Virus record (IMG/VR): IMGVR_UViG_2526164596_000006
DNA: 4,469 nucleotides
Source of the DNA: a virus
Lineage: Duplodnaviria > Heunggongvirae > Uroviricota > Caudoviricetes
Reading direction: 5' to 3' (one strand)
Shown here: positions 1,648-4,469 of the stretch, piece after piece
Layout of the letters: the number at the start of each line of letters is the position of its first letter
Numbering within the stretch: the first letter of the stretch is position 1
Made by a program: the position numbers and the translations under genes
The notes under the pieces: model-generated
The model's database searches: none
The model's input: only the letters and a program-made list of their open reading frames with translations
Told to the model about the DNA's origin: nothing

Positions 1648-2607
1648 ATGAAAATTTGTATCGACGACGGCTCCACCAACATCAAGCTGGCATGGACTGA
1701 GAACGGCGAACGCCGCAACGCCATCAGCCCGAACAGCTTCAAATCGGAATGGTCTGCGCCGTTCGGTGGCATGCAGCCCGCAAACTACATGCTTGATGGC
1801 GTGCGCTATGGTTTTGATCCGGTCAGCGATCGATTTGTCCAGACGACCGACACGCAATACCAGTACAGCGATGTGAATGTAATTGCCATTCATCACGCGC
1901 TGGTCAAATCAGGCATCACGCCACAGGAGGTGGATGTGGTTGTCACCCTGCCACTGAGCGAGTATTTCGACACAAACGCACAGCCGGACATGGCCAACAT
2001 CAACCGCAAAAAAGCGAACGTTATGCGCCCGGTGGAGTACCAGAACGGCGAAGCATTCACTATCCGTAACGTGCGGGTTATGCCTGAATCCATTCCGGCT
2101 GGCTTTAAGGCACTGGCTGACATGAGTCCGTTTGAATCCCTGCTGATTGTGGATTTGGGCGGAACCACGCTGGATGTGGCAAAGGTTCAGGGGCAACTGG
2201 CAGGTATCAGCCAGGTGTTTTGCGATCCACACGTAGGCGTTTCTCTGATGGCCGATGCCGTACTGTCGGTGATGGCCACTAACGGTATGCGCACCAGTCA
2301 CCACATCGCCAATACCATTATCGAACATCGCCATGATGAAGCCTGGCTGCGCCAGCACATCCACAATGACGCGCATTACGACAGCCTGATGGCGGTTATT
2401 CGTGAAAAGGAAGAAACACTGAAACAACGAGTGATCCGCGCGCTGGCGGGTTTTTCGGGTTACGGGCGGGTGATGGTTGTCGGTGGCGGGGCGGAGATTG
2501 TGGCACCCGCTATCCGCGAAGCCTGCGGAGTTAATGCGACTTTCATCGCGGACGGGGTGCCACAGTTTGCTCTGGTTAATGGGCTGTACGCAATGGACAA
2601 GGAGTAA
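1648..2607 (+). CDS. parM: ParM/StbA-family actin-like plasmid segregation ATPase (319 aa)
   Basis: ATG at 1648 preceded by AAGGA at 1635-1639. The N-terminus MKICIDDGSTNIKLAW...ISPNSFK...YQYSDVNVIAIHHAL closely parallels R1 ParM as I recall it. All three actin-fold nucleotide-binding motifs are present: IDDGSTNIK (phosphate 1), IVDLGGTTLDV (phosphate 2), MVVGGGAEIV (adenosine). Length matches ParM (~320 aa). Confidence 0.9.
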   Translation: MKICIDDGSTNIKLAWTENGERRNAISPNSFKSEWSAPFGGMQPANYMLDGVRYGFDPVSDRFVQTTDTQYQYSDVNVIAIHHALVKSGITPQEVDVVVTLPLSEYFDTNAQPDMANINRKKANVMRPVEYQNGEAFTIRNVRVMPESIPAGFKALADMSPFESLLIVDLGGTTLDVAKVQGQLAGISQVFCDPHVGVSLMADAVLSVMATNGMRTSHHIANTIIEHRHDEAWLRQHIHNDAHYDSLMAVIREKEETLKQRVIRALAGFSGYGRVMVVGGGAEIVAPAIREACGVNATFIADGVPQFALVNGLYAMDKE

Positions 2608-2611
2608 ACCA

Positions 2612-2923
2612 ATGACGACACCAACCAGACGGATAAGTTTCTATCTGAAGCCCGCCGCCGTCAAGAACGAAGGCGAAGCATGCACCTGGCTGGACAGCCT
2701 TACACCAGAAGCCCGCAAAAGCGGCCAACGTGTGGCTTTTCTGGCCGGGCTGGCACTTCTGAAAATGAATCCGGCAGAGGCTTACCGACTGGCTGCATGG
2801 GCTGACGATGAGGCGTTATCAGTGACACAAACCAGGACAGAACGCCCCGCGTCACAGCCAGTACCAACCTCACAGATAACCAGTCGGATGGCCGGAAATA
2901 TCAGGGCGTTATTTCCCGAATAA
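2612..2923 (+). CDS. parR: ParR/StbB-family centromere-binding adaptor (103 aa)
   Basis: ATG at 2612 sits 4 nt after the parM stop, with AAGGAG at 2599-2604. The ORF track's longer version starting at 2477 overlaps parM and is rejected. RRISFYLKPAAVKNEGEACTWLDSLTPEARKSGQRVAFLAGLALLKMNP parallels R1 ParR (RRTIAFKLNP...LDSIPQGERSRLNRAALTAGLALY, from memory), and the C-terminal IRALFPE matches ParR's LRSLFPKE. Gene order parM then parR is canonical. Confidence 0.8.
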   Translation: MTTPTRRISFYLKPAAVKNEGEACTWLDSLTPEARKSGQRVAFLAGLALLKMNPAEAYRLAAWADDEALSVTQTRTERPASQPVPTSQITSRMAGNIRALFPE

Positions 2924-2928
2924 CACAA

Positions 2929-2952
2929 CATCAGGGCGCATCCGCCCTGATG
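2929..2952 (+). promoter_or_regulatory. Perfect 10-bp-stem hairpin (4-nt loop) between parR and the downstream gene pair; possible attenuator, processing site or operator
   Basis: catcagggcg (2929-2938), loop catc (2939-2942), cgccctgatg (2943-2952). A third copy of the arm, atcagggcg, lies at 2900-2908 inside the last codons of parR, allowing an alternative pairing. The downstream tract is only weakly T-rich (actttaat), so this is not a textbook intrinsic terminator. Confidence 0.4.
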
Positions 2953-2986
2953 ACTTTAATCCGGGAACATAAACAAGGGGGACACA

Positions 2987-3319
2987 ATGCAACACATTGA
3001 CAGAGAAAAAGCGCAGCGACTGATTGAGCGGATGGAAGCGCTGGCGAAAGAAGAAAATGTCAACATCCAAAAAATAGCTGAATGTGGCCAGATAGTTCTT
3101 CGTCGTGAAAAAGACCTCAAACAACTGATGTCTGGCGAAACCAGCAAAACATGGACTTCAGGCGAGGAGACGATTTATTGCAGCTTCTGCAATAAATCTC
3201 AGTACGAAGTCACAAAGGTGATTGCCGGACCGTCTGTTTGCATCTGCAATGAGTGCGTGGATTTGTGCAATGAAATTATCAGGAGAGAAGTGACAGACAA
3301 AAAGGGAAAAAACGCATGA
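2987..3319 (+). CDS. Small protein with a C-terminal ClpX-type C4 zinc-binding domain (110 aa); N-terminal ~60 aa of unknown function
   Basis: ATG at 2987 with a strong SD (AAGGGGG at 2975-2981). Residues [40 protein letters not shown] align almost residue-for-residue with E. coli ClpX N-domain [40 protein letters not shown] (from memory), conserving all four Zn-ligand Cys (CSFC ... CNEC). No AAA+ module follows; the protein ends 15 residues later. Confidence 0.8.
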
Positions 3320-3654
3320 ACAGAAAACAAAAACAAGAGTTGAAATACTTTTTACGTAAAGAAATTGCCAGGCTTGAAGATGCAGAATCACAATCATCAG
3401 AAATTCCGTTCGGAATGGATATCAACGACGCCCGTATGCTCCAGGCATACCGCATAGCTCAGGCTGCACTACAGGCAAAACCGTCAGATGGACTGGTTAG
3501 AGCAGTACGATTCTATGAACTGGTAAAGCGTGAGAATCCGCCAGCCGAAACCGGAGCATGGAAAGACGCTGTTGACTGGGTACTCAAAGAGGCTTGTCAG
3601 GTTGTAAACACTGGCATCAAAGGAGACCTAGCCCAGCCTGCATCAAAGCTATAG
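3316..3654 (+). CDS. Hypothetical protein (112 aa), translationally coupled to the ClpX-zinc-finger gene
   Basis: Its ATG (3316-3318) overlaps the upstream TGA (3317-3319) as ATGA; SD-like AGGGAA at 3304-3309. Predicted to be largely helical and charged ([24 protein letters not shown]...). I recognise no domain. Stop is TAG at 3652-3654, followed directly by a terminator. Confidence 0.6.
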
Positions 3655-3664
3655 AAATGAGCCA

Positions 3665-3692
3665 AAACGCCCTCTTCCAGGGCGTTTATTTC
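3665..3692 (+). terminator. Rho-independent terminator closing the parM-parR-zf-hyp cassette
   Basis: aaacgccct (3665-3673), loop cttcc, agggcgttt (3679-3687), then a T-rich tail (atttc). It starts 10 nt after the gene-4 stop. On the minus strand the hairpin is followed by TTTTGG, so it may act in both directions. Confidence 0.7.
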
Positions 3693-3694
3693 AA

Positions 3695-3721
3695 TGCACA
3701 ATAGTGCACAAATTTGCACAA
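3695..3721. repeat. Three direct TGCACAA heptamers at exact 10-bp phasing (a fourth copy at 3787-3793)
   Basis: TGCACAA at 3695-3701, 3705-3711 and 3715-3721, followed by a T7 tract. Helical phasing suggests a binding site for a multimeric DNA-binding protein, for example in packaging/cos recognition or regulation. Confidence 0.5.
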
Positions 3722-3785
3722 TTTTTTTGAACGACTTTTTGCCCTTCCGGCCCGCGTGGCGGCTGGATCCGTCAGGGATCCGTGC

Positions 3786-3818
3786 GTGCACAAAAAAACG
3801 CGTTTTTTCTGCGCGCAG
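3786..3818. repeat. Cluster of perfect palindromes in the cos-proximal intergenic region
   Basis: gtgcac (3786-3791), a 16-bp perfect palindrome aaaaaacgcgtttttt (3793-3808), and an abutting 10-bp perfect palindrome ctgcgcgcag (3809-3818). Preceded by ggatccgtcagggatcc (3765-3781) and a GC-rich stretch containing gcgtggcgg (3754-3762), which partly resembles the 5' part of the 186/P2 cohesive-end sequence as I recall it. Confidence 0.5.
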
Positions 3819-4092
3819 GTGACGGGGGAACAGCCCGCGTTTCAGGGGGTAAATAGCATTCCCTGAACGATGTCGCAGAGATACAACAGAATGGCTGTAT
3901 TTCTCACGCTGAGCGTGAAAAAGACGTGAGGGCTTTTGATTTGATGGGGTGAAAGGTAAGGCCGTCAAAATCGCACTGAGACGGCGAGAACATGCAGTCA
4001 ACGCGGTGGGATTGCGTAAGAGTCTGACTGTCGATGATGGCAATCAGCAGGAAAGCGTCGTGAAATTATCTGATTGATACAGGAGCTGGAGA

Positions 4093-4121
4093 GCCGGGGC
4101 ATAAATTTTTTATGCCCCGGC
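4093..4121 (-). terminator. GC-rich hairpin about 25 nt downstream of the portal-like gene stop; candidate terminator or packaging-region structure
   Basis: gccggggcat (4093-4102), A/T loop aaatttttt, atgccccggc (4112-4121); the stem can extend to 13 bp. The flanking sequence is not strongly U-rich on either strand, so terminator function is uncertain. Confidence 0.4.
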
Positions 4122-4145
4122 GAAGCAGCAGACAAGCGAAGCGCG

Positions 4146-4469
4146 TCAGGATGTGGGCTGGGTGTCTAACAGTGCGTAAGGGTTAAAGCGGATCACCTTT
4201 TCGCCAAGCCAGTCATTGATGTGCTTCATGGCCTCCATGACGGGCATCAGTTCGTTAATTGCGTAAACCCGCGCGGCCTTCTCCACATCACCAAACGCAC
4301 TTTTTTCGCCCGGCATCGCCCCCATCAGTTGCGGCGGAACGCGGTGCGCAGCCAGCACATCATCACGGGATGCCGCCTTAACATTCATGAACTCATCCTT
4401 TGCGGTGATCTGCTGGAACGGCAAAATTTGCACCCCCTCTTTGCCCCCGTTGGGCGCATGGATGAGCAC
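4146..4469 (-). CDS. Phage portal protein, P2 gpQ-like, C-terminal fragment (N-terminus beyond the window end)
   Basis: The minus-strand frame is open to the window edge (first in-window codon GTG); stop is TGA (plus-strand tca at 4146-4148). AHRVPPQLMG resembles the (F/G)VPPxLLG motif I recall from Phage_portal-family proteins. Convergent orientation and position after the A-distal non-coding region match P2 gene Q. Confidence 0.55.
   Translation of the reverse strand: MLIHAPNGGKEGVQILPFQQITAKDEFMNVKAASRDDVLAAHRVPPQLMGAMPGEKSAFGDVEKAARVYAINELMPVMEAMKHINDWLGEKVIRFNPYALLDTQPTS

Follow-up and report, generated by a model that had tools for sequence, protein, structure and literature searches.

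A likely cos packaging site marked by four TGCACAA boxes in a P88-like prophage of the P2 family

Short repeats mark the packaging sites of several well-known phages. The lambda cosB region comprises the sites R3-I1-R2-R1, where the small terminase gpNu1 binds and IHF bends the DNA. Repeated boxes at the SPP1 pacL and pacR sites, and at the PaP3 cos, are bound by ring-shaped small terminases.

The closest described system is the cos of the P2 family, which lies between the accessory genes on the gpA side and the portal gene Q (Rousset 2022, PMC9122126). The locus beside cos is known as a hotspot for gene exchange, and satellite P4 shares solely the cos region with P2 (PMC9122126). A 55-bp core of the P2/P4 cos is attributed to Ziermann and Calendar (1990), as cited in PMC5694545, PMC9594776, and PMC9122126. 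Longer cos flanks increase P2/P4 cosmid transduction more than 1000-fold (PMC9594776).

Here we consider the equivalent locus in a stretch of 4,469 nucleotides (the window), which is from a P88-like (Xuanwuvirus, P2 family) prophage of E. coli. The window as a whole has matches in 595 of 5,426 complete E. coli genomes at a coverage of at least 80%, and its non-coding stretch is a 96% match to phage P88. P88-like prophages as a group are found in about one fifth to one third of complete E. coli genomes. The same gene order is seen in P88 and E. coli prophages:

30-1571, + strand: replication protein gpA, C-terminal part
1648-2607, + strand: ParM (cargo)
2633-2923, + strand: ParR-like Plasmid_stab_B protein (cargo)
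2987-3319, + strand: ClpX-type zinc-finger protein (cargo)
3316-3654, + strand: open reading frame without a family (cargo)
3655-4145, strand not applicable: non-coding stretch, 490 nt
3665-3687, + strand: stem-loop with arms AAACGCCCT and AGGGCGTTT and a 5-nt loop, followed by TATTTCAA
4146-4469, - strand: portal gene Q, 3' part (Phage_portal match; 93-100% identity to P88-like portal genes)

The cargo (1648-3654) lies downstream of gpA and is followed by the 3' end of Q, which among the head genes is the one nearest to cos on its right side. This arrangement is that of a P2-family cos locus.

The ParM/ParR-like cargo is a plasmid-type partition system within an integrated P2-like prophage. 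Just upstream of parM (1648) is a 42-nt direct repeat (1505-1546 and 1578-1619; 83% identical), each copy of which includes a short palindrome, ACGGGATT-N-AAAA-N-CCCGT. This pair likely is a parC-like centromere or a promoter for the ParM/ParR-like cargo. A 4-nt overlap joins the last two cargo genes: one (2987-3319) encodes 110 residues with a C-terminal ClpX-type C4 zinc finger (PF06689) and no ATPase; the other (3316-3654) encodes 112 residues that match no Pfam family.

The initial annotation, made from the letters of the window, had placed a cassette terminator beside a set of repeats, and there is indeed a hairpin with a 9-bp stem (3665-3687) directly upstream of them. Its 9-nt arms are 100% complementary (RNA fold -14.3 kcal/mol; z -4.66). 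The sequence of this region differs in P88-like phages with other cargo; the stem-loop is the terminator of the cargo operon, and as a part of the cargo it lies outside the conserved cos block. The functional unit of that block, on the best reading of the sequence, spans approximately 3695-3854:

3695-3701, + strand: distal box 1, TGCACAA, at -123 from the candidate cohesive end
3705-3711, + strand: distal box 2, TGCACAA, at -113
3715-3721, + strand: distal box 3, TGCACAA, at -103
3722-3730, + strand: T-run plus GA, TTTTTTTGA, directly after box 3
3731-3786, + strand: spacer of fixed length and variable sequence
3787-3796, + strand: proximal box, TGCACAAAAA, at -31; includes the fourth exact TGCACAA (3787-3793)
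3797-3817, + strand: link between the proximal box and the cohesive end; its final GCGCGCA is conserved
3818-3836, strand not applicable: candidate 19-nt cohesive end (cosN), GGTGACGGGGGAACAGCCC
3837-3854, strand not applicable: right flank of cosN, GCGTTTCAGGGGGTAAAT

Three exact heptamers at 10-bp spacing, plus a fourth about 70 bp downstream, is how the repeats were first described. Both statements are accurate: the first three copies are 10 bp apart from start to start, and the fourth lies 72 bp past the third. A fifth copy, on the - strand within the ClpX-zinc-finger reading frame (3263-3269), probably reflects chance. Five copies in the window compare with an expectation of 1.35, and five were reached in 2 of 200 shuffles. 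An exact 7-mer present three times with equal spacing of 9-12 bp occurred in 2 of 20,000 windows simulated with a first-order Markov model. The whole P88 genome is not enriched for the word (9 found, 9.5 expected), and four of those nine copies fall inside 100 bp at the cos-proximal locus. Therefore, the signal is local clustering rather than word bias. The repeat is real, local, and non-random.

What do the boxes do? The reading that best accommodates the evidence below, with a probability of about 0.7, is that they are recognition elements within cos, the DNA packaging site, of a P88-like phage of the P2 family. The initial annotation had suggested a multimeric site for terminase or packaging recognition near cos, an idea favored by the fixed distance of the boxes from cosN and by their equivalents in P2, 186, and P4. 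It had placed the repeats between the last cargo gene and a separate cos region. The array does adjoin the cargo; rather than standing apart from cos, however, the boxes form the left edge of the cos block, with distal box 1 at the junction with the variable cargo.

Several features of this block deserve description. The T-run TTTTTTTGA has a conservation of 0.89 in diverged elements, and is kept also in Enterobacter phage phiT5282H and in a satellite-like island (see below). The spacer contains GC-rich inverted repeats, with GGATCC-N5-GGATCC at 3765-3781; in P4, 186, and other lineages, this place is taken by another GC-rich inverted repeat. A 15-nt inverted repeat, 3783-3797 and 3803-3817 (TGCGTGCACAAAAAA and TTTTTTCTGCGCGCA; 87% complementary), runs across the proximal box and reaches exactly to the candidate cut site. 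The fold of this region has an energy of -16.9 kcal/mol (z -2.2). P2, 186, and P4 have a different inverted repeat there (CCGCCCC...GCGGGCGG), so symmetry beside cosN may be a further part of the conserved architecture.

We place the candidate cosN, and the exact cut positions within it, by location and by identity to P2: GGTGACGGGGGAACAGCCC has 13 of 19 identities to the P2 end, GGCGAGGCGGGGAAAGCAC, and occupies the homologous place relative to the proximal box. Its sequence is conserved in phiT5282H, where the flanks diverge, and intermediate forms of the cohesive end (GGCGAGGCGGGGGAGCAAG and GGCGCCGGGGGGACAGCGC) occur in related prophages. A search for phage records or contigs that end at the candidate cosN found none; among 210 occurrences of the cosN sequence in the fetched loci, none is at a true phage end and one adjoins an IS1 insertion. 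This last is in the IMG/VR element IMGVR_UViG_2681813261_000011, in which the insert end (reverse strand, first 50 nt) is what we take to be IS1. There, 2 nt separate the IS1 end from the candidate cohesive end to its right, and the whole box region is gone; owing to the lost boxes, this prophage should be unpackageable.

The distance from the candidate cosN to the Q stop is 328 nt here and 186 nt in P2. The extra DNA (3855-4145) is conserved in P88-like phages, and ends with a long inverted repeat at about 4094-4121 (CCGGGGCATAAA...TTTATGCCCCGG), in the position of the P2 terminator tQ. The small open reading frames annotated in P88 between cosN and Q probably are spurious.

Boxes 2 and 3, together with the T-run, can also be drawn as a back-up intrinsic terminator (GTGCA-N6-TGCAC, then T7), and this was the only terminator-like site in the consensus scan. 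Its stem is only 5 bp, and its fold (-6.1 kcal/mol; z -0.6) was equaled by 51 of 200 shuffles. Moreover, the bases before the boxes, on which the pairing relies, differ from one relative to another; a hairpin with T-run of this kind is absent from P2, 186, and P4; and boxes 1 and 4 are left unexplained. As an account of the array it is hardly tenable.

Recognition elements of a cos site should have counterparts in related phages whose cohesive ends are annotated. The right ends of P2, 186, and P4 were read up to their annotated 19-nt cohesive ends. In each, TGCAT occurs three times, near -123, -111 to -113, and -101 to -103, and is followed by a GC-rich inverted repeat, by TGCATTAAAA at -29, and finally by the 19-nt end. 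By the distal-box criterion, itself drawn from the present sequence comparison, the window (-123/-113/-103) aligns with P2, 186, P4, and 73 P4-like satellites (approximately -123/-111/-101). The proximal box has the form TGCAnnnAAAA throughout: TGCACAAAAA at -31 in the window, TGCATTAAAA at -29 in P2, 186, and P4. The box word is TGCAT in P2, 186, and P4, and TGCACAA in the clade of P88 and phiT5282H. Phage phiT5282H (Novemvirus) can be aligned with the window solely in the cos block, where it keeps the boxes, the proximal box, and the candidate end, with a P4-like spacer ('GGCGCGGTCTGA'). The layout, and its homology to the cos of P2, 186, and P4, are established. Every sequence-level defining feature of a P2-family cos site that was tested is present, and by this comparison the element in the window probably is such a site: an ordinary feature, but poorly documented.

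Where does the known core end? P2/P4 homology starts at the TGCATTAAAA proximal box, and the 55-bp core, counted here as 29 + 19 + 7 nt, would start with that same box. On this count, the three distal boxes fall outside it. The effect of longer flanks on cosmid transduction fits a need for elements beyond the core.

As the initial annotation had proposed, arrays were sought in other P2-like genomes, and TGCACAA or TGCAT boxes do recur at cos-proximal positions. A gpM profile scan of one genome per species gave 80 loci, in 34 of which a box followed by a cos-like sequence lies upstream of Q, where expected. The three-plus-one layout, with constant distances, is found in prophages of Trabulsiella, Symbiopectobacterium, Serratia, Enterobacter, Pantoea, Erwinia, Brenneria, Klebsiella, Yokenella, Photorhabdus, and Pectobacterium, among others. 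Pseudomonas, Xanthomonas, Halomonas, Burkholderia, and similar hosts mostly gave no match to the cos pattern; one Burkholderia locus (L170) has TGCATAAAAA boxes. The initial annotation had regarded genome-wide chance frequency, and absence from the same position in related phages, as signs against the motif. The first is seen in P88; the second is not seen.

Conservation within the block is selective. An ungapped, cosN-anchored alignment was made of 14 elements with gpM 55-98% identical to that of P88, and scored by the mean majority fraction. There were no indels within 140 nt. Scores in these 14 elements are:

distal boxes 1, 2, and 3: 0.95, 0.94, and 0.99
3-nt gaps between boxes: 0.79
spacer: 0.76
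proximal box: 0.99
proximal box to cosN: 0.73
cosN: 0.94
cargo side: 0.47

This selective conservation is established as well, and the boxes are the best-conserved part of the region. These scores bear on the possibility that the boxes act mainly through DNA shape, with phased TGCA steps and A/T runs bending the cos region and no readout of bases. The exact 10-bp spacing, followed by the T7 and T5 runs, would suit such a role, and a spacer of invariant length and drifting sequence suggests that geometry matters. Curvature, however, does not call for heptamers conserved at 94-99% beside 3-nt gaps at 0.79, nor for the same word at -31, outside the phased array. Moreover, two clades keep different words (TGCAT and TGCACAA) at the same positions. 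Together with the heptamer conservation, this looks like recognition specificity rather than generic curvature, and action through shape is unlikely.

One element from Klebsiella michiganensis (NZ_PRDB01000011.1), with its cos upstream of gpQ, keeps a cosN-like sequence beside degenerate boxes: TGCAAAA, TGAACAT, and TGCACGA, and a proximal TGCGCAAGAA. It may be a decaying prophage, or may indicate tolerance of box variation.

A second sample comprised 75 IMG/VR relatives chosen solely by their portal gene, gpQ. Box 1 is exact in 55 of the 75, with variants TGCACGA and CGCACAA; box 2 is present in 73, and box 3 in at least 74. Boxes 2, 3, and 4 are essentially invariant. About 20 unrelated classes of cargo flank adjoin box 1 exactly. 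Invariant boxes with unrelated flanks at box 1 indicate that the array is the left limit of DNA preserved by selection beside the cargo hotspot.

That same boundary could be read differently, with the boxes as crossover or recognition sites for the swapping of cargo cassettes. Homology breaks exactly at box 1 and sometimes within it (CGCACAA, GCGCACAA), in a locus known for exchange (PMC9122126). But no second TGCACAA array is present near gpA, at the other end of the cargo, and boxes 2, 3, and 4, all internal to the conserved block, surpass even box 1 in conservation. Swapping would explain neither the fixed distance to cosN nor the sharing with satellites, whereas purifying selection on an essential cos block would also produce a boundary at box 1. 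A role in cassette exchange is very unlikely.

Satellites provide a further line of evidence for packaging recognition. Searches via Psu found 73 P4-like elements (62-100% identity). These elements retain all four TGCAT boxes, along with the inverted repeat and the end, and show drift in the spacers. Their mutual homology stops approximately 7 nt past the cohesive end, so nearly all of the signal is left of the cut.

In IMG/VR, 115 arrays match the exact pattern of the TGCACAA-type block, 103 of them beside a portal gene. Eight are too near the end of a locus to judge, and four have no detectable gpQ within 1.8 kb downstream. One of these four (L364) is a P88-type block, and one (L357) is from another lineage with a different cos sequence. 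The remaining two (L354 and L368) come from an element of another kind, an island located at tRNA-Arg/yfdC and present as a full copy in 55 of 5,426 complete E. coli genomes. A further example, in addition to those in L368 and L354, is:

NZ_CP033635.1 1323661-1345561 (L372), positions ~1100-13400, reverse complement: yfdC island, roughly 12 kb

The genes of the island include an integrase, a helix-turn-helix regulator, an Icd-like gene, a Toprim primase, a second integrase, an ogr/Delta-like zinc finger, a 236-residue open reading frame without a family, and MazEF, along with the TGCACAA-type cos block. It also encodes a homologue of the P2-family capsid protein, 35% identical to P88 gpN and with an N-terminal extension. 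No portal or terminase gene was found in the island, and annotated sid and psu also are absent. Similarity to the window extends solely from box 1 to +36 (36 nt past the start of cosN). Within this block, the island matches the window exactly in its boxes and cosN, with divergence in the spacer. The right flank of cosN (3837-3854) is the last stretch in common with this island, and hence marks the right edge of the shared cos block.

The island has the appearance of a P4-like satellite that would use P88-type helpers and supply a capsid gene itself. The sharing of the block with satellites is established, and two unrelated satellite families each retain precisely this block of one phage clade, as expected for a packaging signal. 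The boxes are shared by satellites that have nothing else in common with the phages, and this too speaks for the terminase idea of the initial annotation.

Comparison across so many neighborhoods also bears on whether the boxes are operators, through which a phage or host transcription factor would control the cos-proximal cargo or head genes independently of packaging. The initial annotation had offered regulation by such a factor as its alternative. Helically phased direct repeats are typical of some regulators, for example P2 Cox. Moreover, the P2 old-tin transcript starts approximately 27 nt from box 1, so that a promoter can adjoin the boxes. In the window, though, no sigma-70 promoter-like site occurs in 3560-4200. 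The initial annotation had found no resemblance to IHF, LexA, Cox, or Ogr sites, and the consensus scan agrees: there were no matches for IHF, LexA, Ogr/Delta, the Cox box, sigma-54, NtrC, Fis, or CRP. (A sigma-54 reading of GTGCAC-N4-TTGCA has the wrong spacing and lacks GG.) No Rfam family matched 3500-4300 at E <= 1. The cargo is transcribed toward the boxes and ends at its own terminator. Furthermore, the boxes persist beside about 20 cargos, and in satellites with other neighboring genes; the spacing between boxes and cosN is constant, and that between boxes and any given gene is not. An operator function is quite unlikely, and the regulatory alternative found no support.

Neither are the boxes the parC centromere of the ParMR cargo. 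They occur without ParMR in phiT5282H (where no ParM or ParR gene lies between the putative gpA and cos, and the boxes are kept), in P2-type phages, and in satellites; parC is more likely to be the pair of 42-nt repeats upstream of parM.

If the boxes are recognition elements for packaging, their type might follow the terminase. TGCAC-type boxes are found in elements with gpM at least 41% identical to that of P88, and TGCAT-type boxes in elements with gpM at least 48% identical to that of P2. The distal and proximal boxes of one element mostly are of the same type; Pectobacterium prophages are a partial exception, with TGCACAA distal boxes and a proximal TGCATAAAAA beside an extra TGCACAA. This pattern is compatible with recognition by terminase, although it may represent only one or two evolutionary events and could reflect plain shared ancestry. 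Eight elements (L112, L116, L118, L119, L122, L126, L128, and L129), from Brenneria, Pantoea, Klebsiella, Yokenella, and Photorhabdus, combine TGCAC-type boxes with a P2-like end, GGCGAGGCGGGGG..., which indicates that the box word and the cut-site sequence evolved partly independently.

Which subunit reads the boxes? The identities of gpM, gpP, and gpQ co-vary across elements, and the reader consequently is not assignable to one subunit from this comparison; no natural recombinant separating gpM from gpP was found in 38 elements. The sole Pfam match for the gpM proteins of P88 and P2 is PF05944 (Phage_term_smal). Sequence and profile searches found no solved structural relative of gpM and no demonstrated DNA-binding domain.

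These observations suggest a model for terminase recognition at the P88-like cos. The phage terminase would bind the four boxes, which share one orientation; by analogy with other phages, we infer that the oligomeric small subunit, gpM, most likely is the reader. The three distal boxes, in 10-bp phase, would present themselves on one face of the helix. DNA of the fixed-length spacer would bend or wrap, holding the distal and proximal sites together. The large subunit, gpP, would then be positioned on cosN (3818-3836), where it would make the staggered cut, with 19-nt 5' overhangs, and start packaging. The recognition elements lie on what will be the right end of the virion DNA, and terminase is accordingly predicted by the model to remain with this right end.

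An extension of this model seems possible rather than probable. The box word and the cohesive-end variant together may set packaging specificity, dividing the P2-family phages of E. coli into at least two mutually exclusive groups, each with its own satellites. One of these satellites would be the uncharacterized P4-like element at tRNA-Arg/yfdC, with its TGCACAA-type signal and its own P2-family capsid gene.

Published descriptions of P88 and of C. rodentium prophages make no mention of cos, and the repeats are not discussed in the paper on P2-like diversity or in the P4 papers. The box word and candidate end of the P88 clade, the distal boxes as a family-wide feature, and the island with the TGCACAA-type signal appear to be undocumented, although part of this may be known, as the literature covered does not include the 1990 cos mapping.

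Together, these results delimit the likely packaging signal of the widespread P88-like prophages, and propose a functional P2-family cos that extends approximately 95 nt beyond the often-quoted 55-bp core. A longer cos, if true, would explain the poor performance of P2/P4 cosmids made from short cos fragments. It also would provide a design rule for phage-based DNA delivery: include all four boxes, and leave their spacing unchanged. Moreover, box type could serve as a sequence marker for predicting which satellite uses which helper.

How does this locus compare with the packaging sites described in other phages? Like lambda cosB, it has short repeats within approximately 120 bp of the nick site, together with a spacer to be bent, and the repeats presumably assemble the small terminase so that the large subunit can cut cosN. 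The resemblance is functional, and membership in the lambda type can be dismissed. There is no homology of sequence or protein: gpM belongs to PF05944 (Phage_term_smal), not to the Nu1 family. No IHF consensus, even relaxed, was found in 3640-3870. All four boxes here are direct repeats, and they lie on the side of the right virion end.

The SPP1 pac and PaP3 cos sites likewise offer phased short repeats that could be contacted at once by the domains of an oligomeric small terminase. They involve unrelated phage families and other repeats, and binding there is experimental, whereas for the P88-like cos we infer it.

P4 and its P2 helper provide the closest parallel for the satellites. The P4-like elements and the yfdC island each carry the full box-spacer-box-cosN block of one clade, and little else of it. 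The island differs in having a P2-family capsid homologue and a TGCACAA-type signal, with no annotated sid or psu; its helpers are presumed.

Finally, the cos sites of P2, 186, and P4 share with the window the same genomic position, to the right of the accessory genes on the gpA side and to the left of Q, and the same order and spacing of boxes, inverted repeat, and G-rich 19-nt end. They differ in the box word (TGCAT instead of TGCACAA) and in box spacing (12/10 instead of 10/10), and the P2 end differs from the candidate end GGTGACGGGGGAACAGCCC at 6 of 19 positions. Sequences of the phiT5282H type are intermediate between the two forms, joining P88-type boxes and cosN to a P4-like spacer.
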